In this document: one piece after another, positions 23,927 through 57,225 of the stretch
How positions within the stretch are numbered: the first letter of the stretch is position 1
Layout of the letters: every line of letters starts with the position of its first letter
NCBI GenBank assembly: GCA_947589065.1
Contig: CANPZM010000002.1
Coordinates: forward strand, 1-63,409
From: an uncultured Clostridia bacterium
Lineage (GTDB): Bacteria > Bacillota > Clostridia > TANB77 > CAG-508
Length of the DNA stretch: 63,409 nt
Reading direction: 5' to 3'
Program-made: the position numbers and the translations under genes
The notes under the pieces: generated by a model
The model's database searches: none
The model's input: only the letters and a program-made list of their open reading frames with translations
What the model was told of the DNA's origin: nothing

Positions 23927-24077
23927 GAACAAAAGCGGATATTATTAACATTTTCGCTATTTACGACATTTTAAGGTCCGCGTCTTTGTTCGTCCGCGAA
24001 AAATTGTATAACAATTTTTCTGTGGAATGCTTTATATCATAGGAAATTCATAGAACTTTCCTATGATATAAAAAAAA
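23927..24077 (-). repeat. Intergenic modular repeat, full copy A
   Basis: gaacaaaagcggat...ggtccgcgtctttgttcgtccgcGAAAAATTGTataACAATTTTTCtgtggaatg...tatcatagg-loop-cctatgata. The strand given is the one on which the modules read M3-M2-M1. Confidence 0.9.
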
Positions 24078-24110
24078 GACAAATAATTTCAATTATCTGC
24101 CTTATTTATG

Positions 24111-25073
24111 CTAACTAAAAAAACTAATTTGATTATCAATTTTTAGCCAACTTTTTTGATTAGTCTCTGTTATTTTATCTTCTGGTTCTAATTCTCCAAT
24201 TAAAAATGGAGAATTAAGATTATGCTTTTTTATATTTTCTTTTACCAGTTCTTGATTTGCATTTGCATAACAGTATTTGCACAAATGCATACAAGTATTA
24301 TATGCACCTATGTCATTTCCTAATAAGCAACTACAACCATTTCTTTTACTATTGTTATTTGGTACATTCAAATTACTGTCTATTGCCTTTTCAACTATTT
24401 CTTTACTCATACAACCAGTTATGTCTAGCCCATAATCTTTTAAGAAATTATTTTCGCAACAAGAATGTATTATTATATTATTCTGCTTTCCTATCTTTGA
24501 AAAAGCTGTTGCTATTTGAATTTGTTCCTGTTCATTCGGTGGTCTTAAATCTGGTGAATTTATTTTTACCTTTTTATACATATCTAAGAAACTAATAGTA
24601 CAATCTTCAGTATAACCTTTAAGCTCACATAATAATTTATCAAAACATCTAATGTGCTTATTTACATCAAATTTTTCATTTATAAATATTGGATCATAGC
24701 GAAGTGCAACTGAATTTTTTCCAAAATACTCTGATAACCTCTTGAAATCACTAATTACTTGCTTTTTATCTGGAACATTAGGTTCTATATCTTTTCCATA
24801 AGGTGTAATAGTCACAAACCAAAATTGCTTATATGAATCTAATAATGATAAATTTTGAATTAAAGGATGCGGATTTTTAGTACAAAAAGCAAGACAATCA
24901 ACTACATTAGGATTTAAAATATATTTAGTTACTTGATGCCTATAATATGGATTCCTAACATATACAAAACCTTCTTGTATTCTATTTAATAACCACTTAG
25001 AATAAAAAGCCGGTATATCAGTTCTCATCCCCGTATTTATTATCATATCTAATTTTCCTTTTTTTCTAAACAA
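24111..25073 (-). CDS. DUF1848 domain protein (Cys-rich C-terminus)
   Basis: MIINTGMRTDIPAFYSKWLLNRI...FVYVRNPY N-terminus and a C-terminal cysteine cluster (CSCLLGNDIGAYNTCMHLCKYCYAN), as in DUF1848. The likely start is at 25046. Confidence 0.65.
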   Translation of the reverse strand: MFRKKGKLDMIINTGMRTDIPAFYSKWLLNRIQEGFVYVRNPYYRHQVTKYILNPNVVDCLAFCTKNPHPLIQNLSLLDSYKQFWFVTITPYGKDIEPNVPDKKQVISDFKRLSEYFGKNSVALRYDPIFINEKFDVNKHIRCFDKLLCELKGYTEDCTISFLDMYKKVKINSPDLRPPNEQEQIQIATAFSKIGKQNNIIIHSCCENNFLKDYGLDITGCMSKEIVEKAIDSNLNVPNNNSKRNGCSCLLGNDIGAYNTCMHLCKYCYANANQELVKENIKKHNLNSPFLIGELEPEDKITETNQKSWLKIDNQISFFS

Positions 25074-25095
25074 TTTTTAATATATTCTTTTATTT

Positions 25096-26340
25096 TCAAC
25101 AATTTTTTTCTCCACATAATTTTTTCTTCATAAATTTTAGTATTACATATAAACATATCTGTACAAATCCAAAATACCATAAAACATAATTAATGTGCAT
25201 GTGCATATATGAATGTGCCTTTGCCAAAACAAACCAAGATAAAGTTGTTAACAAAAAATAAATAAACATTATAATGTCTCTTCCATAATTTTTTTCTTTT
25301 TTTATTGCATTGTAAATTAGTATTGCTATCGTAGCTACAAATAATAAATTAAAGTATTCTCCTTGAACACCTAATATAATATCCGTAGACCAAATAAAAT
25401 AATGATTTACTACTTCTAGTACATTCGATTTTAATGAAGAATTTATCTTTTCATTAAAATTATTATTATAAGAACCTGCAAATGTTCTTCTTAATACATC
25501 ATTTCTATATATTTGATTTAATCCTTCTACTATATTTCCATTTCCTCTTACTACACTATGACATAGTATCGCCACGATAAATCCTAATAAACATACTATA
25601 CTAACTACTATTGTAGTTTTTAAAATCTCTTTTCTATTATCTTTTTTTCTTGAATCAAAAATATCAAATATAAAGAATGATACAGTCATCATCATAATTG
25701 ATGATATATATTCATATCCACATAAACATTTCACAAAAATTGCTAAAAATATTGCTGGCACTATTATTTTTTTCTTAGAATAGTTCATTGATAATATTAA
25801 AGCTAATAATACAGGTAAAAACCATGTGAATTCTACCCAATATAAATTTCTCGCAAATGCAGATATCCATGGGGATGTTAAAAATGTTATATAAAATATT
25901 ACTCCCAATAATGAATTATATTTTTTTGATATCAAATAGCTTATTAATAAAAGTACAATTGTTAATAATGTACAAGTAATTAGTTTTAAACCAGCAACAG
26001 ATATATGTAATTTATTGTATAAAAAAGAAAAAAAGTGTCCTTGTAGACCAAATTGTGATGTGTAATCTGTAATAATTATATTGCCTTTAGATTCATCATA
26101 ATTACTTAATGATTTTTCCATCTGTGGAACATTTCCAACAAATTTAGCAACATTACCATCTTCTCTTATTCTTGCTAAACCATAAGCACTTGGATTTATA
26201 TTATATTCATCTTTGCATAATTTAGTAAGTACTAAAAATTCAGAATCATTTTGAAATTTCTCAAAATTTATTTTACCGTATCCTAAATATCCTTTTCCAA
26301 AATTAAGTATCATTAATATTAATAAAAATGCTGCAAACAT
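25096..26340 (-). CDS. Polytopic membrane protein, unknown function (possibly glycan-related)
   Basis: 414 aa with more than 8 hydrophobic helices. No motif recognised. Confidence 0.6.
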   Translation of the reverse strand: MFAAFLLILMILNFGKGYLGYGKINFEKFQNDSEFLVLTKLCKDEYNINPSAYGLARIREDGNVAKFVGNVPQMEKSLSNYDESKGNIIITDYTSQFGLQGHFFSFLYNKLHISVAGLKLITCTLLTIVLLLISYLISKKYNSLLGVIFYITFLTSPWISAFARNLYWVEFTWFLPVLLALILSMNYSKKKIIVPAIFLAIFVKCLCGYEYISSIMMMTVSFFIFDIFDSRKKDNRKEILKTTIVVSIVCLLGFIVAILCHSVVRGNGNIVEGLNQIYRNDVLRRTFAGSYNNNFNEKINSSLKSNVLEVVNHYFIWSTDIILGVQGEYFNLLFVATIAILIYNAIKKEKNYGRDIIMFIYFLLTTLSWFVLAKAHSYMHMHINYVLWYFGFVQICLYVILKFMKKKLCGEKNC

Positions 26341-26473
26341 ATATATATATATATATATTTAAGCGTTTTTTCCTTTATTTTCATTACAGCTCTCCTTGTT
26401 ATTTTCAATTTTTCTATATACACTGCAAATATTATAGTTAATATATAACTATATCTAAAAAAACATAAAAAAA

Positions 26474-26548
26474 TGGCTGGGGTAGTAAGATTCGAACTTA
26501 CGAATGTCGGAGTCAGAGTCCGATGCCTTACCGCTTGGCGATACCCCA
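26474..26548 (-). tRNA. tRNA-Gln (anticodon CUG)
   Basis: The reverse complement is TGGGGTATCGCCAAGCGGTAAGGCATCGGACTCTGACTCCGACATTCGTAAGTTCGAATCTTACTACCCCAGCCA. It forms a clean cloverleaf with anticodon loop CTCTGAC and an encoded CCA. Confidence 0.9.
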
Positions 26549-26565
26549 ATATTTTCAATTTTTTT

Positions 26566-26620
26566 GCAATGTAAGTTTTTTATATAACAGGAAATTTTTA
26601 CTTTACTATTATATAGAAAA
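26566..26620 (-). repeat. Partial, degenerate copy of the repeat family (M3 plus the caatgtaag flank)
   Basis: tgcaatgtaagttttttatataacaggaaatttttactttactattatata aligns with the M3 end of copy E. Confidence 0.6.
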
Positions 26621-26652
26621 TAATACTAGTTATCTTTTCATAACTAGTATTA
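26621..26652 (-). terminator. Terminator after eno
   Basis: The minus strand reads AATACTAGTTATgaaaagATAACTAGTATTattttct. Confidence 0.7.
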
Positions 26653-26679
26653 TACACTTAAACATTATATTTATCAAGG

Positions 26680-27948
26680 TTAGTTTCTCAAAATATCGTC
26701 TATATTTAATAATCTATTATATTTAGCTACCCTATCTGTTCTAGCAGGAGCACCAGTTTTTATATAATCTGTCCCACATCCAACAGCCAAATCAGAAATA
26801 AATGTATCTTCTGTTTCTCCAGATCTATGTGATACAATCGTTTTCATTCCAGCCGTCTTTGCAATTTTAATTGTATCAATTGTCTCTGTAACAGTACCAA
26901 TTTGATTTGGCTTTATTAATATTGAATTTGATGCTCTTTGTTTTATCCCTTTAACTAATCTAGATTGATTAGTAACATATAAGTCATCTCCTACTATCAT
27001 TATTTTGTTTCCTATTTTGGCTTGTAAATCTGCCCACTCTTTCCAATCATCTTCAGCTAAACCATCCTCAATTGAAATAATTGGATATTTATCTATTAAC
27101 TCAACTAAATAATCTATCATTTGATCAGAACTTTTATATTTATCAGTTTTCCAAAATAAATATCCATCTTTAGCAATTTTTACAGCCTCATTTTTCATTT
27201 CAGTTGCAGCAATATCTAGTGCAATTCCAAAATCTTGTCCTGGCTCAAACCCTGATTTTATTATAGCATCAATTATATATTTGATTGCATCTTCATCTTC
27301 ATCCAAATTTGGAGCAAATCCTCCTTCATCACCTACTCCAACACTATACCCTTTTATTATAAGTATATTTTTTAATGTATTATATACTTTTACACATTTC
27401 TTAATCATTTCTAAAAAGCTATCTTCTCTTTTTGGTACAATCATAAATTCTTGAATGCTTAAATTATTTGCTGCATGCTTCCCACCGTTCAAAATATTTA
27501 GCATAGGAACTGGTAAACGGTTTGCTGTAAGTCCACCTATATACGTAAATAGAGGTATTCCTAAAGACCTTGACGCAACTCTAGCAATAGCCATTGATGT
27601 AGCAATAGTAGCATTTGCACCCAATACGCTTTTATCTTCAGTACCATCAATATCAATTAAAGTATTATCAATGTCAATCTGATTATATACATTTTTACCA
27701 ACTATTCCCTTTCTTATTTTTCCATTAACATTTTTTATTGCATTTTTTACACCTTTACCATTAAATCTTTCCTTATCTCCATCTCTCAATTCCACAGCTT
27801 CATATTTTCCTGTAGATGCTCCAGATGGTGCTATTGCTTTTGCAGAAAAGCCTCCATCTGTAATCACTTCAACTTGGACAGTAGGATTACCACGTGAGTC
27901 TAGCACTTCCAATCCTTTTATTTCTTGAATTTCCAAAAAATCTCTCAT
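26680..27948 (-). CDS. eno: Enolase
   Basis: Full-length match to the enolase pattern (EVLDSRGNPTV, SHRSGETED, IKTGAPARTDRVAKYN). Confidence 0.97.
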   Translation of the reverse strand: MRDFLEIQEIKGLEVLDSRGNPTVQVEVITDGGFSAKAIAPSGASTGKYEAVELRDGDKERFNGKGVKNAIKNVNGKIRKGIVGKNVYNQIDIDNTLIDIDGTEDKSVLGANATIATSMAIARVASRSLGIPLFTYIGGLTANRLPVPMLNILNGGKHAANNLSIQEFMIVPKREDSFLEMIKKCVKVYNTLKNILIIKGYSVGVGDEGGFAPNLDEDEDAIKYIIDAIIKSGFEPGQDFGIALDIAATEMKNEAVKIAKDGYLFWKTDKYKSSDQMIDYLVELIDKYPIISIEDGLAEDDWKEWADLQAKIGNKIMIVGDDLYVTNQSRLVKGIKQRASNSILIKPNQIGTVTETIDTIKIAKTAGMKTIVSHRSGETEDTFISDLAVGCGTDYIKTGAPARTDRVAKYNRLLNIDDILRN

Positions 27949-28070
27949 TATTTTTCACCTCAATAATATTATCTACAGAATTGTTAATTTTAATACAATT
28001 AAATAATTCAGACTTTATAGATAAGCACATTCTCAATATTTTTTATATTTATGAGGCAAAAAAAAAGAAC

Positions 28071-28859
28071 TCAAGGTTCCTTTCTTTTCATATAATCTGA
28101 ATCCAAAATAATATCATCATCTGTTTTTTGTAATTCCTTCATTTTCTCTACTCTATCAAATAAGTCATTTGACTTTTTTGTTTTTTTGGTCTTTTTTTCT
28201 TTCACATTTCTTGTTTTCTCAGGCCTTTCTTCTGCTTGAGAAGCAATTGCAGCTTCTAGTGTTAATGTTCTTTCATAATCAACAATATTATGAACATTTT
28301 TTATATAAACATTACATTTATAGCTTGTATTATGTTTTTTTTCAAATTCTATTAAATCACTATTCAAGTATTTTTGAACTATCTGTTTTTCTTCTTTTGT
28401 TTGCAAGTCAGAATCAAGTTCTAAATTTTTATATCTCCATATAATATGTCTTTCATATGGTGAAAATTCCGAATTTTTTCCTAAATTTTCATATCCATAT
28501 TCAACATTAAATACAGAATTTTTAATAGTAATAGTCAAATTTGTCCATAATTCAGATTTAGTTTCTCTATGGAGATTACGTAACTTTTTTATATCTGAAT
28601 ATAAACTTTGAATAACACTATTATAGCTTTCTTCATCAATATTAAACATTGAAGGTATCTGATATACATTTACAGGATTTCTTTTTAAAATTCCTTTTGG
28701 GAAATAATAAAAGTACATTTCACCAATCGGTTTTTCAAAAGGTTCTTCAATTATAGATGCATATAAATGCACTGAATCCCATTTCTCTGGAATCATATAA
28801 AATAATTTCTTTTGTATTTCTTCAAAAATGATTCCTTCTTGCTTAGTAGAAGCTAACAT
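28071..28859 (-). CDS. YezG/DUF600-like immunity-protein homologue with a Lys-rich C-terminal extension
   Basis: IFEEIQKKLFYMIPEKWDSVHLYASI...GEMYFYYFP...YQIP..FNIDEESY...LYSDIKKLR...WTNLTITI...FNVEYGYENL..SEF...W follows the DUF600 (TIGR01741) pattern IPxxWEKVY...GEvxFYY. Confidence 0.6.
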   Translation of the reverse strand: MLASTKQEGIIFEEIQKKLFYMIPEKWDSVHLYASIIEEPFEKPIGEMYFYYFPKGILKRNPVNVYQIPSMFNIDEESYNSVIQSLYSDIKKLRNLHRETKSELWTNLTITIKNSVFNVEYGYENLGKNSEFSPYERHIIWRYKNLELDSDLQTKEEKQIVQKYLNSDLIEFEKKHNTSYKCNVYIKNVHNIVDYERTLTLEAAIASQAEERPEKTRNVKEKKTKKTKKSNDLFDRVEKMKELQKTDDDIILDSDYMKRKEP

Positions 28860-28871
28860 TTTTCCCCCTAT

Positions 28872-34466: not shown

Positions 34467-34617
34467 CAACAAAAGCGGACATTATTAACCTTTTCGCTGT
34501 CTATAACATTTTAAAGTCCGCGTTTTTGTTCGTCCACGAAAAATTGTATAACAATTTTTCTGTAGAATGCTTTATATTATAGGAAGTTCAGAGAACTTTC
34601 CTATAATATAAAAAAAA
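34467..34617 (-). repeat. Intergenic modular repeat, full copy B
   Basis: caacaaaagcggac...gtccgcgtttttgttcgtccacGAAAAATTGTataACAATTTTTCtgtagaatg...tattatagg-loop-cctataata. Confidence 0.9.
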
Positions 34618-34649
34618 TGCCACATTTAAGTAGCATTTTAGAATTTATA

Positions 34650-35261
34650 TTATTTATTTTTTCCTATTTTTAAAATATTGAAAAATCCCTTTATTGATAT
34701 ATCTTGAAATAAGAAATCATGGAATTGTGTTAAAACTTTAATAGTTTTAGGTGATAAATTAAAAGCAATTTCCACACCTGTTTCAGGGAAAATTAGGGAT
34801 TTAATTTTAGACCAAAGACCTGTTTTGGTTGTAGGTAAATTATCAGCAAGTGAATCGGCATATTCATCTAAATCATATCCAATAGCACCGCTTTGAACTT
34901 GTTCTTGATTAATATATCCTCCAACATAGTCTGATTGACTTTGAGCACTATTCTGCGTTCCGAATAATCCTCCCATATATCCTCCAGCTTTAGGTAATTC
35001 CATAGAACCAGCTATACTACCAGCATCTTCTTTTATTTTTTCTTTTGAATTTTGGTTTTTTTCGGCATTTCCAGCTTGATTTTGCACTCCACCAAAATTA
35101 TTATCAATTTGGCTATTTACAGGAATTCCAAACTTTCCATATACTCCATTAGCATTTTCTGTTTGTTGATTTTGAACTTGTGTTTCTTCACCATTAAAAA
35201 TTCCTATACTTCCTGCTTGTTCAGTAGTATCTTTATTCATTTCATATTCTATCTTTCCCAT
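34650..35261 (-). CDS. Hypothetical Gly/Gln/Asn-rich protein
   Basis: 203-aa ORF with an RBS (aaggaggaaatt). The first two-thirds are low complexity and the C-terminus is amphipathic. No motif recognised. Confidence 0.5.
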   Translation of the reverse strand: MGKIEYEMNKDTTEQAGSIGIFNGEETQVQNQQTENANGVYGKFGIPVNSQIDNNFGGVQNQAGNAEKNQNSKEKIKEDAGSIAGSMELPKAGGYMGGLFGTQNSAQSQSDYVGGYINQEQVQSGAIGYDLDEYADSLADNLPTTKTGLWSKIKSLIFPETGVEIAFNLSPKTIKVLTQFHDFLFQDISIKGFFNILKIGKNK

Positions 35262-35383: not shown

Positions 35384-36676
35384 TCAATCTATCAAAAAGG
35401 TTTCACACGCATTTTTTACCTTTATTTTAACAATTTTTCCTATATTTTCAGCCTTTAAATGACTTTTTACCATTATATAATTACCTGTATGTCCTTTTAT
35501 TAATAACTTATCCTCTTGTTCTTCAAATAGCACTTCTACTTCTTTTCCAACATAAGACATCAAATATTCTTTCTCATTTTTTTCTGAAAGTTCAATTAAT
35601 TTTTTACTCCTAGCTTCTTTAATATTTCCATCAACTTGATTTTTCATTTTTTCAGCTACTGTACCTTTTCTAGGTGAAAATTTAAATACATGCGTCTTAT
35701 AAAACTTTATTTCTTTTAAAAATTCATATGTTTTTTCGAAATCATCTTCGCTCTCATTTGGAAAACCTACAATTATATCTGTTGTTAATATTACATCACT
35801 ATATAAATTTCTTAATAGCTTTACAACATTTCTAAACTGTTCTGTAGTATACTTTCTATTCATTTCCTTTAAAGTTTTATCACATCCACTTTGTAAAGAA
35901 AGATGAAAATGATGACACATTTTTTCAATATTTTTTAATCTTTTGCAAAAATTTTCAGTAATAATCAATGGTTCTAATGACCCTAGTCTAATTCTTTCAA
36001 TACCATCTATTTTGTTAATATCTTCTAGTAAATCAATTAATCTATATTCATTTTGAAAATCCAAGCCATAAGCTGAAACTTGTATACCTGTTATTACAAC
36101 TTCCTTGATTCCTTTTTCAGCTATCTGACTAATTTCTTCAATTACACTTTCTGGCTTTCTACTGCATATTCTTCCTCTAGCATAAGGAATAATGCAATAA
36201 CTGCAAAAGTTATTACATCCATTTTGAACTTTTATTACTGCTCTTGTTTTTTCTGTATATGTAACATTACCAAAATCATAATAGTAATTTGTATCCTTTT
36301 CTTCCTGTACTTCATTTCCCTCAAAATATGCATCAATATATTGAGCTATATTAACTTTTTGTACATTTCCAAGAACTAAGTCAACTTCTGGCATCTTCTC
36401 TAGTTCTTCTTTAGCTGTTTCAGCATAGCATCCAACAGCAATAATTAAAGCATTTTTATTAATTTCCTTAGCACGCCTTATCATCTGTCTAGATTTTCTA
36501 TCTGAAATATTTGTCACACTACAAGTATTAATTACATATACATCAGCCTTTTGCTCTGGTTGAACAATCTCAAATTTATCCATTAATTTTTGTATCATTC
36601 CATTTGTTTCATATTGATTAACTTTACATCCTAATGTAAAAAAAGCAACTTTTTTCATTTTATTTCCTTCTAACAA
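35384..36676 (-). CDS. mtaB: Radical-SAM methylthiotransferase, MtaB-like (tRNA t6A37 methylthiolation)
   Basis: N-terminal FFTLGCKVNQYE (UPF0004), radical-SAM CNNFCSYCIIP and a C-terminal TRAM-like domain. The likely start is MKKVAFF at 36658, after AGAAGGAAA. Confidence 0.8.
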   Translation of the reverse strand: MLEGNKMKKVAFFTLGCKVNQYETNGMIQKLMDKFEIVQPEQKADVYVINTCSVTNISDRKSRQMIRRAKEINKNALIIAVGCYAETAKEELEKMPEVDLVLGNVQKVNIAQYIDAYFEGNEVQEEKDTNYYYDFGNVTYTEKTRAVIKVQNGCNNFCSYCIIPYARGRICSRKPESVIEEISQIAEKGIKEVVITGIQVSAYGLDFQNEYRLIDLLEDINKIDGIERIRLGSLEPLIITENFCKRLKNIEKMCHHFHLSLQSGCDKTLKEMNRKYTTEQFRNVVKLLRNLYSDVILTTDIIVGFPNESEDDFEKTYEFLKEIKFYKTHVFKFSPRKGTVAEKMKNQVDGNIKEARSKKLIELSEKNEKEYLMSYVGKEVEVLFEEQEDKLLIKGHTGNYIMVKSHLKAENIGKIVKIKVKNACETFLID

Positions 36677-36726
36677 TGTAAGTATTTTTTATATAATAGG
36701 AAAGTAACTTTCCTATTATATAAAAA
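36674..36726 (-). repeat. Partial copy of the repeat family (M3 plus the caatgtaag flank)
   Basis: caatgtaagtattttttatataataggaaagtaactttcctattatataaaaa lies between the mreB stop and the mtaB start. Confidence 0.75.
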
Positions 36727-36758
36727 TACTCTACCATAACTTAGTAGAGTATTGCAAA

Positions 36759-40425: not shown

Positions 40426-40469
40426 AAAAAAGGGCTACAAATCTCTAAATAAGATTTAGCCCTTTTTTA
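40426..40469 (+). terminator. Terminator after mutS2
   Basis: aaaaAGGGCTAcAAATCtctaaataaGATTTAGCCCTttttt. Confidence 0.75.
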
Positions 40470-40474
40470 TTTCT

Positions 40475-40601
40475 ACTTTCCTATTACATAATAAATTCAC
40501 ATTCCACAGAAAAATTGTTATACAATTTTTCGCGAACGAACAAGACGTGGACTTTAAAATATTAAAAATATTGAAAATGCCAATAATGTCCGCTTTTATT
40601 C
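40475..40601 (+). repeat. Intergenic modular repeat, copy C (inverted relative to the others; M3 half only)
   Basis: The plus strand reads ctttcctattacata...attccacaGAAAAATTGTtatACAATTTTTCgcgaacgaacaagacgtggac...gtccgcttttattc. It ends 10 nt from the lexA stop. Confidence 0.85.
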
Positions 40602-45162: not shown

Positions 45163-45327
45163 ATGTTAGAAGAAAAACAGAAATGTGGTCACACTCAAAA
45201 GCAAAATGAAACTCCGAAAAAAGAAAAGCCATATTTCGGCGAATCTCCTGATGACTTGGAAGCCCTGTTGACAGACTTTATTGACTGTCGAGCAACAAGA
45301 GTGTCATCATCTAAGGCTGAAATTTAG
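45163..45327 (+). CDS. Unannotated 54-aa hypothetical protein (MLEEKQKCGHTQKQNETPKKEKPYFGESPDDLEALLTDFIDCRATRVSSSKAEI)
   Basis: ATG preceded by ataGGAGGtatttacc, its own promoter and a GC-rich terminator. The region is visibly richer in G+C than its flanks. The ORF is below the size cutoff of the ORF track. Confidence 0.6.
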   Translation: MLEEKQKCGHTQKQNETPKKEKPYFGESPDDLEALLTDFIDCRATRVSSSKAEI

Positions 45328-45333
45328 CCTCCT

Positions 45334-45366
45334 CACCGCGTGAATTTGTTCACGCGGTGTTTTTCT
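45334..45366 (+). terminator. Rho-independent terminator of the 54-aa ORF
   Basis: CACCGCGTGAAtttgTTCACGCGGTGttttt. Confidence 0.85.
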
Positions 45367-45392
45367 TCATATACTCGAATTCAATTAATATA

Positions 45393-45542
45393 GAACAAAA
45401 GCGGACATTATTAATATTTTTGCTATTTATGACATTTTAAAGTCCGCGTCTTTGTTCGTCCGAGAAAAATTGTGTAACAATTTTTCTGTGTAATGTTAAT
45501 TTTTTATATAATAGGAAAAAAACTTTCCTATTATATAAAAAA
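45393..45542 (-). repeat. Intergenic modular repeat, full copy D
   Basis: gaacaaaagcggac...gtccgcgtctttgttcgtccgaGAAAAATTGTgtaACAATTTTTCtgtgtaatg...tataatagg-loop-cctattata. Confidence 0.9.
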
Positions 45543-45613: not shown

Positions 45614-46996
45614 TTAAATTTCGATTTTTTCTCTAATCCAATTTACTAAATCATCAATTTTTATTCTAACTTGCTCCATTGTATCTCTATCTCTTATAGT
45701 AACCTCATTATCCTCTAATGTATCAAAATCAATTGTTACGCAATAAGGTGTACCTATTTCATCTTCTCTTCTATATCTTTTTCCTATACTTCCTGCATCA
45801 TCAAAGTCACACATAAAATATTTTGAAAGTTTATTATATACATCTAAGGCTTTATCATTTAATTTCTTAGATAATGGTAATACTGCTACCTTATATGGAG
45901 CTAAAAATGGATGAAGTTTTAATACAGTTCTTACGTCACCTTCAGCAATTTCCTCTTTTTCATAACTATTGCATAAAAATGCAAGTAAAACTCTATCAGC
46001 ACCAAGTGATGGCTCAATTACATATGGTACATATTTCTCATTTGTTTCAGGATCTTGATATGACATATCTTGTTTTGAATGGTTCATATGTTGTGTTAAA
46101 TCATAATTTGTTCTATCAGCAATTCCCCATAATTCTCCCCAACCAAATGGAAATTTAAATTCTATATCTGTAGTTGCATTACTATAAAAAACTAATTCCT
46201 CCGGTGAATGATCTCTTAGTCTTATATTTTCCTTTTTCATACCTAAACTTAATAACCAATTTTCACAAAAATCTTTCCAATATTTATGCCATTCTAAATC
46301 AGTACCAGGTTTGCAGAAAAATTCAAGTTCCATTTGTTCAAATTCTCTTGTTCTAAATATAAAGTTTCCAGGTGTAATTTCATTTCTAAAAGCTTTACCA
46401 ATTTGAGCTATACCCATTGGAATTTTCTTTCTAGAAGTTCTTAATACATTTTTAAAATCTACAAATATTCCTTGAGCTGTTTCTGGTCTTAAATATATTT
46501 CAGATGTAGTATCTTCAGTAACACCTTGAAAAGTTTTAAACATTAGATTAAACTTTCTGATATCTGTAAAATTAACTTTTCCACATTTAGGGCAAGGTAT
46601 TTGATTTTCATTAATAAAATCAATTAACTCCTTATCTGTCATTCCATCTGCAATCATATCTTTACCCTGTTCATGAGCCCATTCCTCGATTAATTTATCA
46701 GCTCTATGTCTAGTTTTGCAGTCTTTACAATCAATCAAAGGATCTGAAAATCCCCCAACATGACCTGATGCAACCCATGTTTCAGGATTCATAAGTATTG
46801 CTGCATCTAATCCTACAATATTAGGTTGTTCTTGTATAAATTTTTTTCTCCAAGCTGATTTAATATTATTTTTTAGTTCATTTCCCAAAGGTCCATAATC
46901 CCACGTATTAGCTAATCCTCCATATATTTCAGAGCCAGCATAAATATATCCTCTTGCCTTACATAAATTAACAATTTCCTCCATGTTTTCTACCAT
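45614..46996 (-). CDS. glyQS: Glycine--tRNA ligase (dimeric class II GlyQS type)
   Basis: Class II motifs ([38 protein letters not shown]) and a C-terminal anticodon-binding domain. An RBS AAGGAGG precedes the ATG. Confidence 0.94.
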
Positions 46997-47061
46997 AAAT
47001 ATTCCTCCTTTTTATTAAATCTTGGGATAAAATTAACATTTATATAAAATTAATATTTATA

Positions 47062-47210
47062 GAACAAAAGCGGACATTATAAACATTTTGGCTGTTTATA
47101 ACATTTTAAAGTCCACGTCTTTGTTCTTCCGCGAAAAATTGTATAACAATTTTTCTGTGCAATGTAAGTTTATTATATAATAGGAAAGTTTTACTTTCCT
47201 ATTATATAAT
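47062..47210 (-). repeat. Intergenic modular repeat, full copy E (inside the glyQS leader)
   Basis: gaacaaaagcggac...gtccacgtctttgttcttccgcGAAAAATTGTataACAATTTTTCtgtgcaatgtaag...tataataggaaag-loop-ctttcctattata. It abuts the T-box terminator at 47211. Confidence 0.9.
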
Positions 47211-47432
47211 AAAAAACTTTCATCCCACAAAGGGACGAAAGTAACTTCCGCGGTTCCACCCTATTTGATCATTAATGATCCACCTTAATTAAAATTTGCT
47301 CCAAAGTTCCATCCTATACATTTTAATACTAGATTTCACCATCCTAGTTCTCTTTAATTAAAATTGTACATTCATTCTTTTTCAACGCAATATTAGTATA
47401 ATTATTTTATTCTCTTATGACATTTTTGTCAA
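47211..47432 (-). promoter_or_regulatory. T-box leader of glyQS with its promoter
   Basis: Minus-strand promoter TTGACA (47432-47427), 17-nt spacer, TAAAAT (47409-47404). T-box sequence aaatagGGTGGaACCGCG at 47249-47266. The terminator actttcgtccctttgtgggatgaaagtttttt is at 47211-47242. Confidence 0.85.
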
Positions 47433-50804: not shown

Positions 50805-50894
50805 TAAACTTCCCTACTTTTTTAAAATTTTTTTATTTTTTGCGAAACTTTTTTCAAAATAAAACGTAATATATTATATAGAGGTTTTTAAGTT

Positions 50895-51485: not shown

Positions 51486-51507
51486 AATAATATACATTCA
51501 TAGTGTA

Positions 51508-51615: not shown

Positions 51616-51682
51616 CTCTATTGGAAATATCTTATAATTAACTCATCATATAATATGCAATCCCGAACTTCATATTATATAC

Positions 51683-51712
51683 AAAAATAGACACATACAG
51701 TGTCTATTTTTG
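51683..51712. terminator. Bidirectional terminator between 50895..51485 and the ABC transporter
   Basis: aaaaatAGACACatacaGTGTCTattttt. Confidence 0.75.
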
Positions 51713-51751
51713 TTTCTATTAATTATACATATATTTATATTTCTAAACTTT

Positions 51752-54337
51752 TTATTCAGTCCTTAAAGCCTCAACAGGATCCTTTTTACTAGCAACTTTA
51801 GCAGGAATCAATCCAGCTATCATAGTTAAAAGCATACTAATAAATATCAATACTACAGCACCTAATATAGGTAATTTAGCTAAATTTGAAACATCAGCAA
51901 ATTTTTTAATAACAATATTAATTGGAATTGTAAGTAAACATGTAACACCAATACCTATTAAGCCAGCAACTAATCCAATAATAAATGTTTCTGCATTAAA
52001 TACTCTTGATATATCCTTCTTAGATGCACCTATACTACGTAAAACTCCTATTTCTTTTATTCTTTCTAGTACAGAAATATATGTTATTATTCCAATCATA
52101 ATTGAAGATACAATTAATGATATTGCTACAAATGCAATTAATACATAACTAATCATATTAACTATAACTGTTACAGATGTCATCATTGTTGCAACCATAT
52201 CCGTATATTCAATAACATCTTCCTCTTTACCTTCATCTCTTTTCATTTGATTATATTTTTCAATATCAGCAGTTATTTTGTCTTTACTTTCAAAATCTAC
52301 AGGATATATATTAATTGAATAAGGAGAATCTACATCGCAAATTCCTAATGTAGCAATATTTTCTTCATAAGTTGCATCTGCCATTTTTGAATATGATGCT
52401 ATTACACCTGCTAATTCTTCTTTGCTTAATTTAGCATATTCTGCTTGTTCTTCTGGACTTAATTTTGAATAATCAAATCCATTAGAACTGCTTTGTGAAT
52501 TATCATCAAATTTTCTACCTGTAAACACATTAACTTCTGGATTATCAAGTTGTTCTTTAGCAATCTTTGTTTTATTTATTTCATTTATTATATGCTCTGT
52601 AAGTTCTTTTTTGTATCCAATCATTCCCATATCACCCATTGAAGTTGAAGTTGCTTCTTCTTTTGGTTTTACTACTCCGACTATTTTTACTTCTAGAGCT
52701 TTACTAATCTTATCTTTTAAATATTTTTCATCATTTTTTCTGCTAGCCCAAATCTTTCCTTGTTTTTCATAATAATCCGTATTTAAAAGAATTTTATATG
52801 TTAATCCTAGAAAATCTTCACTTCTATACGTTTCATCCTGTAATTCATCTAGCTCCTCACCATCAATTATCTTATGCATTTTTTCAGTAATTTCAGCTTG
52901 ATCTTTTATTCCTAATGAATATAAACTATAATCACTTATTTCATTATTTTTATTAACTACAAGAATTACTTCTTTATAATCTTGTGGCCATTCTCCAGAA
53001 ATTAAATCATATTGTGACTTTAATAATTCATCATTGTCTATCATTTCAGTCCAAATATCCATTGACTGTCCCATCATGTAATTTGAATTATCTGAAGATT
53101 CAACCATTCCAAGCTTTTCAAAAGTAGTTGCTGGATTTACTTGAACAACACCATCTGATGTATCTGATTTGTAAATATTTAAAGTAATATTATAACCATA
53201 CTGTACTGCATTTGAACATTTCTTTATATCATTGTCAGTTTCATCAATATACTTCTTAAAATCTTTTAAATTGTTTCTTTGCACTTTTTTTGAAATTGTA
53301 TCAAAAACTTCACCAATTATTTGTCTTGAATGAATTTTATCATCATTATACTCTTTTTCGTCCTGATTCATAAACACTTCAAGCATCGAACTAGCATCAA
53401 CACTTTCTTCAACAATGGTAAGAGGATAATTAGATAAAGTATCTTCTTGAACTTTATCTATATATTTTTGCACACCATTAGATAAAGAAAGAATAAGTGC
53501 TATTCCAATAATTCCAATACTTCCAGCAAAAGCTGTTAAAAAAGTTCTACCCTTTTTTGTCATCAAGTTGTTTAAACTCAAAGACAATGCAGTAAAAAAT
53601 TTCATAGATGTTTTTCCAGTTTTAGATTTTAAATTCTTTTCTTTTTTTCTATCAGCTTCTGTAAATGGATTTGAATCACTAATAATTTTTCCATCCAAGG
53701 CTTTAATTAATCTAGAAGAGTATTTTTCTGCTAAATCTGGATTATGTGTTACCATTACAATTAATTTATTCTTAGATATATTTTTCAATATTTCCATTAT
53801 CTGAACGCTAGTTTCAGTATCTAATGCTCCTGTAGGTTCATCTGCTAGAATGATATCAGGATCATTTACTAGAGCTCTTGCAATTGCAACTCTTTGCATC
53901 TGTCCACCAGACAATTGATTTGGTTTTTTATGAATTTGATCTTTCAATCCTACATCTTCTAAAGCTTTAATTGCTTTTTTCTTTCTTTCTTTTCTTCCTA
54001 CTCCGGATAAAGTAAGTGCCAATTCTACATTAGACAAAACAGTTTGATGAGGTATTAAATTATAGTTTTGAAAGACAAAACCAACCGAATAATTTCTATA
54101 TGCATCCCAATCTTTATCCTTAAAATCTTTTGTAGATTTTCCATTGATTATTAAATCACCATCTGTATATCTGTCTAGTCCTCCTATAATATTTAAAAGA
54201 GTTGTTTTTCCACATCCACTTGGTCCAAGAATTGAAACAAATTCACTTTTTCTAAATTCTATATCAATTCCTTTTAAAGCTTTTACAGTCATCTCACCAG
54301 ACAAATAATTTTTAGTTATACCTTTTAACTGTAACAT
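51752..54337 (-). CDS. Fused ABC transporter ATP-binding/permease protein (MacB/FtsX-type)
   Basis: N-terminal Walker A GPSGCGKTT, signature LSGGQMQR and Walker B ILADEPTGALD. A TM helix, a large extracytoplasmic domain and a C-terminal FtsX-like 3-TM bundle follow. Confidence 0.9.
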   Translation of the reverse strand: MLQLKGITKNYLSGEMTVKALKGIDIEFRKSEFVSILGPSGCGKTTLLNIIGGLDRYTDGDLIINGKSTKDFKDKDWDAYRNYSVGFVFQNYNLIPHQTVLSNVELALTLSGVGRKERKKKAIKALEDVGLKDQIHKKPNQLSGGQMQRVAIARALVNDPDIILADEPTGALDTETSVQIMEILKNISKNKLIVMVTHNPDLAEKYSSRLIKALDGKIISDSNPFTEADRKKEKNLKSKTGKTSMKFFTALSLSLNNLMTKKGRTFLTAFAGSIGIIGIALILSLSNGVQKYIDKVQEDTLSNYPLTIVEESVDASSMLEVFMNQDEKEYNDDKIHSRQIIGEVFDTISKKVQRNNLKDFKKYIDETDNDIKKCSNAVQYGYNITLNIYKSDTSDGVVQVNPATTFEKLGMVESSDNSNYMMGQSMDIWTEMIDNDELLKSQYDLISGEWPQDYKEVILVVNKNNEISDYSLYSLGIKDQAEITEKMHKIIDGEELDELQDETYRSEDFLGLTYKILLNTDYYEKQGKIWASRKNDEKYLKDKISKALEVKIVGVVKPKEEATSTSMGDMGMIGYKKELTEHIINEINKTKIAKEQLDNPEVNVFTGRKFDDNSQSSSNGFDYSKLSPEEQAEYAKLSKEELAGVIASYSKMADATYEENIATLGICDVDSPYSINIYPVDFESKDKITADIEKYNQMKRDEGKEEDVIEYTDMVATMMTSVTVIVNMISYVLIAFVAISLIVSSIMIGIITYISVLERIKEIGVLRSIGASKKDISRVFNAETFIIGLVAGLIGIGVTCLLTIPINIVIKKFADVSNLAKLPILGAVVLIFISMLLTMIAGLIPAKVASKKDPVEALRTE

Positions 54338-54416
54338 ATTTCCTCCTTTTAGAAATATTTTGTTTTTATATTATATATTAAAAATATTACATTATCAACT
54401 ATTACCTTTTATTTTA

Positions 54417-54565
54417 GAACAAAAGCGGACATTATTAACATTTTTGCTATTTATGACATTTTAAAGTCCGCGTCTTTGTTCGTCCGCGAAAAATTGTACA
54501 ACAATTTTTCTGTGGAATGTTAATTTTTTATATAATAGGAAAGAACTTTCCTATTATATAAAAAA
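54417..54565 (-). repeat. Intergenic modular repeat, full copy F
   Basis: gaacaaaagcggac...gtccgcgtctttgttcgtccgcGAAAAATTGTacaACAATTTTTCtgtggaatg...tataataggaaag-aac-tttcctattata. Confidence 0.9.
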
Positions 54566-54607
54566 TAACAACATTAGAATAATAAACTAATGTTGTTATT
54601 TTTTATA

Positions 54608-54775
54608 TTATTTAATCTCAATATTTTTTAAAGCATACCTTATGCATTCATTAATTAAAAAATTCACTGAAAATAGATTATTTTTTCTTTTTATTTGTCT
54701 CAACTGTTCCAATAAATCTTCTTCAATTCTACATGTAAATTGTTCATATTCTGCTTTTTTCCTGATTATAAACAT
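54608..54775 (-). CDS. Unannotated 55-aa ribbon-helix-helix (CopG/Arc-like) protein
   Basis: MFIIRKKAEYEQFTCRIEEDLLEQLRQIKRKNNLFSVNFLINECIRYALKNIEIK shows a beta-strand / helix / helix pattern. An RBS GGAGGTG lies 8 nt upstream. The ORF is below the track cutoff. Confidence 0.55.
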   Translation of the reverse strand: MFIIRKKAEYEQFTCRIEEDLLEQLRQIKRKNNLFSVNFLINECIRYALKNIEIK

Positions 54776-54813
54776 ATTTTTTTCACCTCCACGGTGAATT
54801 ATATCTACTAAAA

Positions 54814-54954
54814 TTAGTGCAATCGTCTCATGTATACATTTATTAATTCATCAATTTTATGACTTTGAGCAAGAATCTCTTCATAATTTTTTCCAGCTTC
54901 AATCATTTCATTTAGCTTCTTCTTTTGTAATTCTATTTTCTCCTTTATTGACAT
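54814..54954 (-). CDS. Unannotated 46-aa Spo0E-like aspartyl-phosphate phosphatase family protein
   Basis: MSIKEKIELQKKKLNEMIEAGKNYEEILAQSHKIDELINVYMRRLH follows the Spo0E pattern (I...R..L........+++..SQ.LD.LI..Y). An RBS AAGGTG and a TTGACA/TATTAT promoter lie upstream. Confidence 0.6.
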   Translation of the reverse strand: MSIKEKIELQKKKLNEMIEAGKNYEEILAQSHKIDELINVYMRRLH

Positions 54955-55090
54955 AGAATCACCTTCTTCTTTTGTAAATTATAATATAAATAATTAGAAA
55001 AATTTGTCAAAATTTGTTGTTTACATATATTTTTTTTATTTTATAATCGAAAAATAGATTTATTTTACCAGTACAAACAGTATTTTACTT

Positions 55091-55140
55091 TTGTAAGTTT
55101 TTCTATAATAGGAAGTTCAGAGAACTTTCCTATTATAGAA
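55091..55140 (-). repeat. Partial copy of the repeat family (M3 plus the tgtaag flank)
   Basis: ttgtaagtttttctataataggaagttcagagaactttcctattatag. The loop matches the loop of copy B. Confidence 0.7.
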
Positions 55141-55175
55141 AAAAATTCACTTCTTTACCCGAAGTGAATTTTTTT
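55141..55175 (-). terminator. Terminator after the GGGtGRT gene
   Basis: The minus strand reads aaaaaAATTCACTTCgggtaaaGAAGTGAATTttttt. Confidence 0.8.
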
Positions 55176-55194
55176 CATTAATATTATTTATAAT

Positions 55195-56196
55195 TTATTT
55201 CATAGCTTCTTCTACTGCAACAGCAACAGCAACAGTTGCACCAACCATTGGATTATTTCCCATACCAATTAGTCCCATCATTTCAACATGAGCTGGTACA
55301 GATGAAGAACCCGCAAATTGTGCATCTGAATGCATTCTTCCCATAGTATCAGTCATACCATAAGAAGCTGGTCCAGCAGCCATATTATCAGGATGTAATG
55401 TTCTTCCTGTTCCACCACCAGATGCAACAGAAAAATATTTTTTGCCTGCTTCTATTCTTTCTTTTTTATATGTTCCTGCAACTGGATGTTGGAATCTTGT
55501 TGGATTTGTTGAATTTCCAGTAATAGAAACGTCAACATCCTCTAACCACATTATAGCTACACCTTCTCTAACATCATTTGCACCATAGCATCTAACTTTT
55601 GATCTTTCTCCATTTGAATATGGTATTTCTTCAACTATTTTCACTTTACCAGTAAAGAAATCAAATTCAGTTTTTACATATGTAAATCCGTTAATTCTTG
55701 AAATTACTTGTGCTGCATCTTTTCCCAAACCATTTAAAATAACTCTTAATGGTTCTTTTCTAACTTTATTAGCTGATTTTGCTATACCAATAGCACCTTC
55801 AGCAGCAGCAAAAGACTCATGTCCTGCCAAAAAAGCAAAACATTTTGTTTCTTCTGATAATAGCATTGAAGCTAAATTTCCATGTCCTAAACCAACTTTT
55901 CTATCATCTGCAACAGAACCTGGAATACAAAAAGCTTGTAATCCTTCTCCAATAGCTTTTGCAGCATCAGCAGCTTTTGTGCAACCTTTCTTTATAGCTA
56001 TTGCTGCACCTAAAGTATATGCCCAACATGCATTTTCAAAACAAATTGGTTGAACTCCTTTTACCATATCATAAGGATTAAATCCTTTTTGTTTGCAAAT
56101 TTCTAGAGCATCTTCAAAATCTTTTATTCCGTATTTATCCATCACTGGCTTAATTTGATTTATTCTTCTTTCATAACTTTCAAATGTTACTGACAT
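55195..56196 (-). CDS. GGGtGRT family protein (function unknown)
   Basis: Contains the eponymous SGGGTGRTLHPDN motif, the conserved tail MGRMHSDAQFAGSSSVPAHVEMMG and a C-terminal AVAVAVEEA. Confidence 0.85.
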   Translation of the reverse strand: MSVTFESYERRINQIKPVMDKYGIKDFEDALEICKQKGFNPYDMVKGVQPICFENACWAYTLGAAIAIKKGCTKAADAAKAIGEGLQAFCIPGSVADDRKVGLGHGNLASMLLSEETKCFAFLAGHESFAAAEGAIGIAKSANKVRKEPLRVILNGLGKDAAQVISRINGFTYVKTEFDFFTGKVKIVEEIPYSNGERSKVRCYGANDVREGVAIMWLEDVDVSITGNSTNPTRFQHPVAGTYKKERIEAGKKYFSVASGGGTGRTLHPDNMAAGPASYGMTDTMGRMHSDAQFAGSSSVPAHVEMMGLIGMGNNPMVGATVAVAVAVEEAMK

Positions 56197-56271
56197 TTAA
56201 AATTCCTCCTTCTATTATATTCGTGCAAAATTTCAATCATCAAATATTACACTTCTATTCTTTTATGCTTT

Positions 56272-56964
56272 TTATTCTTTACGTGGATCAATCTTTTTAA
56301 CAGCTTCATCAAATCTTCCATAAGTTCCTGAAGCCTTTTCGATTGCTTCCATTGGATCTACGCCAGCTTTGATTGCATCCATCATTTTTCCCATATGAAC
56401 ATATTTATAACCAATTATTAAGTCATTTTCATCTAAACCAATTTCTACTATGTATCCTTCTGCCAAATTTAAGTATCTTGGTCCTTTTGAAGCACTTGAA
56501 TATATTGTACCAACTTGACTAGTATGACCTTTTCCTAAATCTTCTAATCCTGCTCCTACTGCTAAACCACCTTCTGAAAATGCAGATTGAGATCTACCAT
56601 AAACGATTTGTAAAAATAACTCTCTCATTGCAGTATTTATTGCATCACAAACTAAATCTGTATTTAATGCTTCTAATATAGTTTTTCCAACTAATATTTC
56701 ACCAGCCATTGCAGCTGAATGAGTCATTCCTGAACATCCTATTGTTTCAACTAATGCTTCTTGAATTATTCCATCTTTAATATTTAAAGTTAATTTACAT
56801 GCACCTTGTTGTGGAGCGCACCATCCAATACCATGAGTAAATCCTGATATATCTTTTATTTCTTTTGCCTTTACCCATTTTCCTTCTTCAGGTATTGGTG
56901 CTGGTCCATGATCAACTCCCTTTGCAACTTTGCACATATTTTCCAATTCTTGTGTATAAATCAT
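56272..56964 (-). CDS. NifU/IscU N-terminal-like domain protein, usual partner of GGGtGRT
   Basis: GIGWCAPQQGACKLTLNIKDGIIQEALVETIGCSGMTHSAAMAGEILVGKT follows the IscU scaffold Cys pattern. Confidence 0.65.
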   Translation of the reverse strand: MIYTQELENMCKVAKGVDHGPAPIPEEGKWVKAKEIKDISGFTHGIGWCAPQQGACKLTLNIKDGIIQEALVETIGCSGMTHSAAMAGEILVGKTILEALNTDLVCDAINTAMRELFLQIVYGRSQSAFSEGGLAVGAGLEDLGKGHTSQVGTIYSSASKGPRYLNLAEGYIVEIGLDENDLIIGYKYVHMGKMMDAIKAGVDPMEAIEKASGTYGRFDEAVKKIDPRKE

Positions 56965-57081
56965 ATTTACCTCCTACTATTAATTGTTATATTTAACCAT
57001 TGTCATTCTATCATAATTCATTTTGGCTTTCAACATGTTTTGTCTGCCTCAATTTATTATAATACCAAATTTCCAATAGCA

Positions 57082-57225
57082 GAACAAAAGCGGACATTAT
57101 TAACATTTTCGCTATTTATGACATTTTAAAGTCCGCGTCTTTGTTCGTCCGCGAAAAATTGTATAACAATTTTTCTGTGGAATGCTTTCTATTATAGGAA
57201 GTTCATAGAACTTGCCTATTACATA
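57082..57225 (-). repeat. Intergenic modular repeat, full copy G
   Basis: gaacaaaagcggac...gtccgcgtctttgttcgtccgcGAAAAATTGTataACAATTTTTCtgtggaatg...tattatagg-loop-cctattaca. Confidence 0.9.

Follow-up and report, generated by a model that had tools for sequence, protein, structure and literature searches.

What is the hairpin-rich repeat of about 150 nucleotides (nt) that recurs, whole or in part, twelve times on contig CANPZM010000002.1 (assembly GCA_947589065.1) of an uncultured Clostridia bacterium (lineage TANB77; CAG-508)? The whole stretch of DNA analyzed, 63,409 nt long and called the window in what follows, has a G+C content of about 26%, a strongly negative GC skew on the plus strand, and nearly all of its genes on the minus strand. 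An initial annotation, made from the sequence alone, described a dispersed modular element with seven full and five partial copies and three conserved hairpin modules, M1, M2, and M3. The answer reached here is that the copies probably belong to a family of selfish, non-coding, non-autonomous mobile repeats that depend on structure and home to transcription terminators.

The copies themselves are beyond dispute. An nhmmer search of the whole window with a profile built from the seven copies returned exactly seven full matches, with E values from 1e-36 to 1e-47, as well as five partial or M3-only matches, and an independent repeat finder recovered the same repeat families, so the number and positions first given hold. 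One of the seven, reported at 40475-40601 as a full inverted copy, is inverted relative to the rest but has no 5' arm in M3. For the M2 palindrome, the window has seven occurrences compared to 0.00 expected from 100 shuffles. Over M1, M2, and the linker, the full copies are 84-98% identical in pairs (mean 91%), in agreement with the earlier estimate by eye of about 85-95%, and the element proper is 143 nt long in five of them. As first described, all copies are intergenic, no open reading frame (ORF) lies inside them, and there is no transposase near any of them judging by the Pfam families of the flanking proteins. Together they account for an estimated 14% or so of the non-coding DNA of the window. 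One early argument for selection was that the M1/M2 core is the most G+C-rich non-coding sequence present. The core does reach 0.42-0.47 compared to 0.23 for non-coding DNA, but the G+C content of both transfer RNAs (tRNAs), both T-boxes, and the S-adenosylmethionine (SAM) riboswitch exceeds it, and the argument is wrong in the form given.

Read in the sense of the upstream gene, the element runs from M3 through an A-rich linker ending in TGCACA to the M2 palindrome, the trinucleotide GCG, and M1. M3 is a long perfect hairpin, ATATWATAGGAAA..TTTCCTATWATAT, which begins directly at the boundary of the element. It starts with ATAT, ACAT, or GCAT and has no conserved GTAG-type motif. M2 is an A+T-rich palindromic hairpin, and M1 is a long hairpin with the closing stem GAACAAA/TTTGTTC, in which the T-tract is paired with GAACAAA, and a variable loop of about 35 nt. 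Either strand folds equally well into the three hairpins, whether taken as RNA or as DNA (z scores of -6.3 to -9.0). On both strands M3 has a T-run before it and an A-run after it, and pairing of the two runs extends M3 to a perfect duplex of about 20 base pairs (bp). The A-run that stands beside M3 on the plus strand had been counted as part of the module. It is in fact the complement of the T-run of a host terminator and lies outside the repeat proper; six of the seven copies had been described antisense to transcription, and the terminator junction had been missed. The ends of the element are unrelated (ATATWATAGG... and ...TTTGTTC), and since in no subtype is the left end ATATWATAGGAAA complementary to the right end GTCCGCTTTTGTTC, terminal inverted repeats (TIRs) are absent.

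It is the position of the element that says most about its nature. All 12 copies in the window abut a hairpin with a T-run, and M3 starts at the very next base. The upstream hairpins of the full copies are all different, being the terminators of a DUF1848 gene, an unnamed gene, mutS2, a class II aminoacyl-tRNA synthetase (aaRS) gene, a small ORF, greA, and, for copy 5, a T-box leader. The same junction is seen in related genomes. A scan for the M2 pattern, with one genome per species, gave 64 loci (L001-L064). The range and target preference that the initial annotation had proposed to follow in relatives can thus be read from these loci and their terminator junctions, at a scope of about 8 kb per copy rather than whole genomes (449 kb for the 64 loci, and about 0.5 Mb together with the window). 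Of 58 unique left junctions from the window and the loci, 55 have at least five T in the preceding 8 nt, compared to 16.5% at random positions, and 42 follow a hairpin of -6 kcal/mol or lower, compared to 9.5% at random positions and 9.3% at random T-runs. The mean energy of the upstream hairpin is -9.5 kcal/mol against -2.6 kcal/mol in the control.

The orientation of the element is as constrained as its position. The upstream gene is co-oriented with it in 59 of the 76 cases that have a called neighbor, a count made with an ORF filter that misses some small or uncalled genes and leaders, and some of the non-co-oriented cases follow just such leaders or genes. In the window, the only copy on the plus strand follows the only relevant plus-strand gene, mutS2, which means that orientation tracks the upstream gene. 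Also, new copies start right behind the M1 + TTTTGTTC tail of an older copy, so that tandem or nested arrays arise, with TTGTTC|M3 junctions in L001, L002, L003, L006, L013, L021, L035, and L060. The M1 hairpin with its TTTTGTTC right end looks like the insertion target and appears to mimic a terminator. In two cases, L008 and L150 (the latter inside another repeat), a copy lies within the T-rich loop of a larger hairpin, which suggests that the feature recognized is a T-run next to a stem arm.

Orthologous sites without the element argue that it arrived by insertion. The spacer between the T-box terminator and the ribosome-binding site, where copy 5 lies in the window, is empty in 80 of 80 orthologous loci (67-88% amino acid identity), and the compact ancestral arrangement of T-box and aaRS gene is visible in L071. 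Another site is empty in L026 and filled in L052, at 86-92% identity of the flanks. In species whose GreA is 93-96% identical and whose gene order is the same, the region downstream of greA holds a different repeat, a TIR-bearing transposable element of the miniature inverted-repeat kind (MITE), and in L150 a copy of the element's type E has landed inside the loop of that MITE. L032 lacks the truncated copy behind mreB at its orthologous site. At the ABC-transporter locus, the ortholog in L044 has M3 only and different neighbors, and for copy 4 synteny downstream of the aaRS gene is not conserved, leaving no comparable empty site. There is no direct duplication flanking any of the seven window copies or in the three between-species comparisons of empty and filled sites. 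The orthologous site of copy 2 is also filled in L003 (67-78% nucleotide identity), where conservation of M3 and M2 far exceeds that of the flanks. Each of these two copies carries the subtype signature of its own genome in the loops of M3 and M1, and their terminators differ, which points to independent hits on a hot spot or to homogenization within genomes.

Some observations on other insertions at the same sites deserve mention. In L068 and L069 (about 2300-2490), the spacer between the T-box and the aaRS start holds an unrelated insertion that consists of a direct duplication of TTTTATAAGTTTTAACGTATAAAAATACGCTGGCAACTTATAAAA; colonization of this spacer has thus happened more than once. The MITE downstream of greA is about 170-200 nt long, has long TIRs (e.g., GCACATAATAAATATATTTTTTCTTCCTTGTGGGTCGCAACTCT ... 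GGTCGCTTCGCGTCAGAAAAGAATATATTTATTATGTGC) that begin with the TTGCACA motif preceding M2, and sits right after the greA terminator (L149 2540-2760, L150 2500-3000, L151/L152, and L153/L155). It is not present in the window and has no Rfam match. Only two samples contained exact matches to the GreA, GAPDH, and sigma-factor proteins, both of low coverage, and their contigs end inside or before the element. Two contigs from the European Nucleotide Archive with identical GreA, L065 and L066, both break off within the element, immediately behind M2. Short-read assemblies are broken by the repeat, and copy numbers in metagenome-assembled genomes (MAGs) are therefore underestimates.

Relatives of the element, found in about 15 MAGs of uncultured Clostridia, show how the family has diversified. 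An nhmmer search of the loci gave 82 matches. The loci come from rabbit, chicken, buffalo rumen, and other gut samples, and their MAGs are titled uncultured Clostridia, Eubacteriales, or Clostridium sp., the exception being L038, titled uncultured Bacilli. The family's range is restricted to a clade of uncultured gut Clostridia with very low G+C content, and phage, plasmid, and viral collections gave no matches. Copies are 143 nt long in the window and reach about 190 nt in relatives, and there are at least six subtypes. Type A is the subtype of the window. Type B has a longer M1, AACAAATCT..GCTTC..GCTAGACCTT(loop)AAGGTCTAGC GAAGC TAGATTTGTT, with the sub-variants GAGAAC/GTTCTC and AGCACT/AGTGCT. 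Types C, E, and F are marked by the M2 palindromes CAAATTTTAC/GTAAAATTTG, CAAATTTTT/AAAAATTTG, GAGATTTTCA/TGAAAATC, and CAAATTTAT/ATAAATTTG, type D is a short subtype, and other M1 inner stems include GCGGGC/GCCCGC and CGGAAAGCC/GGCTTTCCG. The modules are shuffled among these types: A and B share M2 and differ in M1; A, E, and C share M1 and differ in their M2 palindromes; and M2 occurs by itself in the central loop of an unrelated MITE (L037), a relative of the one found downstream of greA. Together with the M3 modules that stand alone in the window, this supports the modularity claimed at the outset. Copies within one genome are more alike than orthologous copies are, each genome having its own homogeneous subtype.

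The hairpins have been maintained through this diversification. In an alignment of 48 sequences, 8 of the 17 pairs of M3 are changed on both sides and 96% of the cells remain paired (slid controls, at most 62%), a covariation score reached by none of 500 shuffles. In the M1 of A-like types, 4 of 13 pairs are compensatory and 94% of the cells are paired (slid controls, 34-51%). Between subtypes, the inner stem of M1 takes at least eight different complementary sequences, and in its loop the length (about 30-37 nt) is conserved and the sequence is not. M2 is represented by at least six different palindromes at the same position between subtypes; its invariance across L001-L064 is an artefact of the M2-pattern scan and is not counted as evidence, and the copies found incidentally show the true variation. 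Covariation in the three modules, which the initial annotation had marked for checking, is thus present as compensatory change, and it lies between subfamilies. Individual copies gather unpaired and truncating changes. Mismatches of the G-U type number 11 on the gene-sense strand and 15 on the opposite strand, an absence of asymmetry that names neither RNA or DNA nor the active strand. Pairing that is kept in proliferating lineages, while single copies decay without strand bias, argues that the fold is needed for spreading and not for the function of a host RNA.

How might such a repeat spread? It integrates in one orientation immediately 3' of a hairpin and T-run, be it the terminator of a gene, a tRNA, or a T-box leader, and would be mobilized in trans by an enzyme that recognizes folded single-stranded nucleic acid. 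The enzyme could be an HUH/Y1-type single-stranded DNA transposase such as those of the IS200/IS605 or REP-RAYT kind, or else a recombinase that works on folded strands. Single-strand transposons of the HUH/Y1 type and their non-autonomous derivatives have no inverted ends, leave no duplication, carry hairpins at their ends, and insert in strict orientation. A single-strand enzyme is favored here since the element also lacks inverted ends and a visible duplication, has end hairpins, is strictly oriented by a short target, and has a target defined by structure. The A-run of the element beside M3 may pair with the T-run of the target, sites behind terminators may be a safe haven, and the M3-only copies are probably truncated derivatives of full ones.

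Of course, several points weigh against a terminator-homing mobile repeat. No mobilizing enzyme turned up: an all-versus-all BLASTP of the ORFs from the loci revealed no multi-copy ORF in the 0.5 Mb of window and loci, a tblastn search with an approximate IS200 TnpA sequence found no Y1 transposase in about 8 kb around the copies, and a scan of window and loci for the YADD motif found no ORF resembling a reverse transcriptase (RT). The geometry is unlike that of IS608-type ends, as no spacer separates M3 from the boundary and the hairpins at the two ends are dissimilar. Truncations mostly keep the terminator-proximal end, which fits an RNA-mediated mechanism at least as well. Occupancy is high, with M3 or a full copy behind about 12 of some 18 recognizable gene-strand terminators in the window, a rough figure as the terminator finder is permissive within genes, and a selected host function would likewise account for the copy in L003 at the orthologous site of copy 2. 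Comparisons between species are the basis for the exact junction and the missing target duplication. The ORFs that follow truncated copies are ordinary host genes, named by reading their sequences as cyclophilin-like, RecN-like, and deacetylase-like.

The occupancy of terminators leads to the question of whether the host benefits. It is unlikely, though it fits part of the evidence, that the element is a beneficial module of terminator architecture, spread by recombination and kept by selection. Such a module could be a BIME-like protein-binding or insulator site, a substrate for RNase III that T-run, M3, and A-run would form in read-through RNA, or M1 + TTTTGTTC acting as a back-up terminator. 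The rough two-thirds occupancy of terminators, the filled site in L003 with its well-conserved M3 and M2, the compensatory changes in the hairpins, and the perfect duplex that M3 forms with its flanking runs would all be expected of it. However, the element follows the U-tract and is therefore not in the terminated transcript, and the place of copy 5, between a T-box and the aaRS gene under its control, means that M1 cannot terminate efficiently. In close relatives the orthologous sites, those at the T-box and greA among them, hold either nothing or an unrelated MITE, and the homogeneous subtype of each genome, along with the unpaired and truncating changes in single copies, also speaks against selection by the host.

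The pattern of truncation raises a second alternative, rather unlikely in our view, in which the element spreads through RNA like a bacterial short interspersed nuclear element (SINE). A transcript reading M1-M2-M3-A-run would be reverse transcribed by a host or retroelement RT, primed by a nick or free 3' end at the T-run of a terminator that anneals to the A-run, with M3 as the 3' recognition hairpin, and incomplete complementary DNA would leave copies that keep M3 and lose M2 and M1. Just such copies are common: 5 of the 12 in the window, and others in L034, L038, L040, and L044, keep only M3 with or without the linker, and their distal ends are variable. Two M3-side copies share the subfamily-specific linker of a full copy and are thus truncated derivatives, and copies in L021, L023, L032, L034, and L040 lack only the last 11 nt or half of M1. 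The specific form of the idea, a retroposon whose RNA ends in M3 and the A-run and is copied by target-primed reverse transcription from the terminator T-run, is doubtful enough to be ranked lower still. A fixed orientation, junctions that fall exactly at T-run|M3, and the abundance of far-end truncations would follow from it. Every junction is T-run|M3, pairing is possible between the T-run and the A-run behind M3, and known retroelements do use terminator or hairpin targets, as in group IIC introns and the homing of diversity-generating retroelements (the latter, PMC3240598). On the other side, no RT was found in the sampled DNA, and no conserved promoter lies on the M1-M2-M3 strand, whose upstream flank is made up of variable host DNA. 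Some copies are instead truncated at the opposite end (at 40469 in the window and in L010, L046, L052, and L063), and the M1-M2-M3 strand has no excess of G-U-compatible mismatches (15 versus 11). To our knowledge, bacteria have no SINE-like mechanism for RNA other than introns.

Two further ideas can be given very little credence. If the element were a multi-copy small RNA gene or a riboswitch-like leader of the downstream genes, then its strong predicted folding, the 54 of 74 copies upstream of a co-oriented gene, and the duplicated GCGGAC, which could in principle permit alternative pairings, would make sense. But no function is common to the genes downstream (a sigma factor, GAPDH, trpS, an aaRS, an ABC transporter, and a NifU-like gene), and copy 3 has no downstream gene at all, its far end abutting the stop codon of the convergent lexA. 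Where it can be recognized, the promoter that actually serves the downstream gene is located past the element. No conserved promoter is found in the element or upstream of it, the weak 9/12 matches inside being no more frequent than in shuffles, and copies at unrelated loci are 84-98% identical and are absent from orthologous loci. Rfam, searched at the gathering score and up to an E value of 10, returned no family for the element and only chance hairpins resembling microRNAs, in line with the early failure to match it to a known riboswitch or small RNA; at the gathering score, the only matches in the window are a T-box, two tRNAs, and the SAM riboswitch. The other idea, a classical MITE derived from a DDE-type insertion sequence (IS) by internal deletion and moved by cut-and-paste, is suggested by the small size, the A+T-rich, multi-copy, intergenic, ORF-free character, and the true TIR-bearing MITE at the same kind of site in related genomes, and is just as improbable given unrelated ends without TIRs, no flanking duplication seen at any window copy or in the empty/filled comparisons between species, a strictness of orientation unusual for DDE MITEs, and no IS with matching ends in the 0.5 Mb of window and loci.

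A few other identities were tried and rejected outright. The element is not an intrinsic terminator: the T-run of M3 is on the wrong side, M1 has a 35-nt loop and its T-tract is paired, and copy 5 lies in a 5' untranslated region (UTR) controlled by a T-box. It is not an attC site of an integron, as by eye its ends depart from the R''/R' core consensus (RYYYAAC / GTTRRRY) and it is flanked by core housekeeping genes with promoters and leaders of their own. It is not a REP element, though M3 is an extragenic palindrome, as it has no conserved GTAG-type tetranucleotide. It is not a group IIC intron, having 143 nt, no ORF, and no match to a group II intron model even at E values up to 10. A shared regulon or leader was rejected because a Pfam search of 20 flanking proteins showed them to come from unrelated housekeeping genes. 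The coordinates of the copies, of the terminators that they abut, and of other features mentioned are given in Table 1.

Table 1. Copies of the repeat, abutting terminators, and other features of the window. The sign in the fourth column is the strand of the nhmmer match.
Feature	Coordinates	Strand	nhmmer match	Details
Full copy 1, 143 nt	23927..24069	-	23926-24076 (+)	M3 24033-24069, M2 23998-24020, M1 23927-23991; between DUF1848 and sigma-factor genes
Host intrinsic terminator of gene 24111-25073	24070..24101	-		Hairpin + T8; copy 1 begins at next base
Full copy 2	34467..34609	-	34467-34616 (+)	M3 34573-34609, M2 34538-34560, M1 34467-34531; upstream of GAPDH promoter
Host terminator of gene 34650-35261	34610..34636	-		Hairpin + T8; abuts copy 2
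Copy 3, sole plus-strand copy	40469..40601	+	40602-40471 (-)	M2 40509-40531, M1 40538-40601; M3 5' arm missing; after mutS2
Host terminator of mutS2	40427..40468	+		Hairpin + T6; abuts copy 3
Full copy 4	45393..45536	-	45392-45542 (+)	M3 ~45505-45536, M2 45464-45486, M1 45393-45457; downstream of class II aaRS gene 45614-46996
Full copy 5	47062..47210	-	47061-47213 (+)	M3 47174-47208, M2 47133-47155, M1 47062-47126; between T-box terminator and aaRS ribosome-binding site
T-box leader	47211..47394	-		Rfam 93.3 bits; terminator + T-run 47211-47242 abut copy 5
Full copy 6	54417..54559	-	54416-54565 (+)	M3 54529-54559, M2 54488-54510, M1 54417-54481; after terminator 54560-54597 of small ORF
Full copy 7	57082..57224	-	57081-57231 (+)	M3 57188-57224, M2 57153-57175, M1 57082-57146; after greA terminator 57225-57256
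M3-only copy	7299..7331	-	7299-7339	Directly after tRNA-Asn terminator 7332-7360
Truncated copy: M3 + linker + first 9 nt of M2	26556..26614	-	26556-26620	After terminator 26615-26648 of 422-aa (amino acid) ORF 26680-27948; just upstream of tRNA-Gln; linker variant same as in copy 5
Truncated copy: M3 + linker	36675..36721	-	36675-36725	After mreB terminator 36722-36750
M3-only copy	55095..55138	-	55095-55144	After terminator 55139-55175 of GGGtGRT-family gene
M3-only copy	60697..60737	-	60700-60753	Directly after terminator 60738-60769 of second T-box leader; upstream of aspS
Second T-box leader	60755..60934	-		Upstream of aspS (58826-60595); 81.4 bits vs Rfam gathering score 93
SAM riboswitch	17015..17098	-		58 bits
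ORF with short tandem units	19273..20025			~7 head-to-tail 12-nt units at 19767-19870
54-aa ORF	45163..45327	+		No Pfam family; in 417-nt gap between copy 4 and trpS
Terminator behind 54-aa ORF	45334..45359	+		Strongest G+C-rich terminator of the region
Small ORF	54608..54775	-		Between copy 6 and M3-only copy
Small ORF	54814..54954	-		Between copy 6 and M3-only copy

Some features of the surroundings are worth recording. The terminator region of the second T-box is 83% identical to that of the T-box at 47228-47394, and an M3 hairpin stands behind it as well. No T-box was detected upstream of trpS, and the 54-aa ORF in the gap before that gene is on the plus strand in a region otherwise of the minus strand. 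Near copy 6, a 46-aa ORF is a Spo0E-like sporulation regulator (Pfam E 1e-8), and a 55-aa ORF, to which the terminator abutted by copy 6 belongs, has no family. By a rough scan, a terminator-like hairpin near 16979, downstream of the SAM riboswitch, is among the few intergenic gene-strand terminators with no M3 behind them. The tandem units in the ORF at 19273-20025 are TATTATCTACAR-like and imply a protein repeat of four residues.

The mobile-repeat reading can finally be set beside systems already known. Group IIC introns, which are retroelements of about 0.7-2 kb made of a ribozyme and an RT, insert just downstream of the stem-loops of intrinsic terminators, in sense orientation and by structure over sequence, and gain a low-cost refuge by it. 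The element likewise inserts just after an intrinsic terminator and in sense orientation, but it is only 143 nt long, with neither ribozyme domains nor an ORF. Palindrome-associated transposable elements (PATEs) and REP/REPIN-RAYT systems are extragenic palindromes at gene 3' ends, mobilized in trans by a single-copy HUH enzyme that is easily missed. Like a PATE of the IS200/IS605 type, the element has no TIR, no target duplication that could be seen, hairpins at its ends (M3 and M1), and one orientation set by a short target. Unlike a PATE, its M3 and M1 are unrelated in sequence and no TnpA partner was found in the sampled DNA; unlike IS608-type ends, its M3 has no spacer at the boundary; and unlike REP and REPIN, it has no GTAG-type tetranucleotide. 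The bcr1 repeats of the Bacillus cereus group are also Firmicutes repeats, about 155 nt long, intergenic, structured, and near gene ends. Likened here by description only, they have a TTTAT target duplication and MITE-like ends, and neither is seen in the element.

The closest kin in kind are the small interspersed repeats SPRITE, BOX, and RUP of Streptococcus pneumoniae (Croucher et al. 2011, PMC3049150). Like these, the element is under 200 nt, A+T-rich, non-coding, multi-copy, strongly folding, limited to a narrow clade, and given to mutual insertion; BOX is modular in the same way, and SPRITE is enriched near gene 3' ends and terminates in a hairpin with a T-rich tract, as M1 does (PMC3049150). 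A BOX element even forms a composite with T-box leaders (PMC3049150). The comparison with BOX and RUP made by the initial annotation is thus apt for the general kind and fails in the particulars, because BOX and RUP have TIRs and target duplications, and SPRITE has AAAA/TTTT ends (PMC3049150), none of which is seen in the element. Nor is any of the three reported to start exactly at the T-run of a terminator in fixed orientation, as happens here. Compared by description only, the element also differs in having three separate hairpins, each with covariation, in its other host clade, and in showing no evident sequence relation. Another instructive case is IS1272 (with TnSha1) of staphylococci, which integrates at DNA hairpins, mostly transcription terminators (Furi et al. 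2016, PMC4923244). Like the element, it has a low specificity for primary sequence, and no target duplication is seen with either, whereas it is an autonomous IS with inverted repeats, cuts within the stem, deletes part of the hairpin, and inserts in both orientations (PMC4923244). Here the terminator is left intact and the orientation is fixed.

Literature searches returned no description of a three-hairpin repeat of this kind, and on the best reading a terminator-homing, TIR-less, modular repeat with three hairpins is a family not previously described, kin in kind to BOX, RUP, and SPRITE. The family could serve as a strain marker or as a natural probe of terminator positions. Its copies inside the T-box-controlled 5' UTRs of two aaRS genes may alter their expression. 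Few small, non-autonomous repeats of bacteria have a target rule so sharp, with a fixed orientation, insertion at the base after the T-run, and a 3' end that recreates the target. Such a rule points to an enzyme that would read folded single strands, and it adds a non-coding case of 143 nt to the short list, so far group IIC introns and IS1272, of elements that recognize the structure of a terminator.

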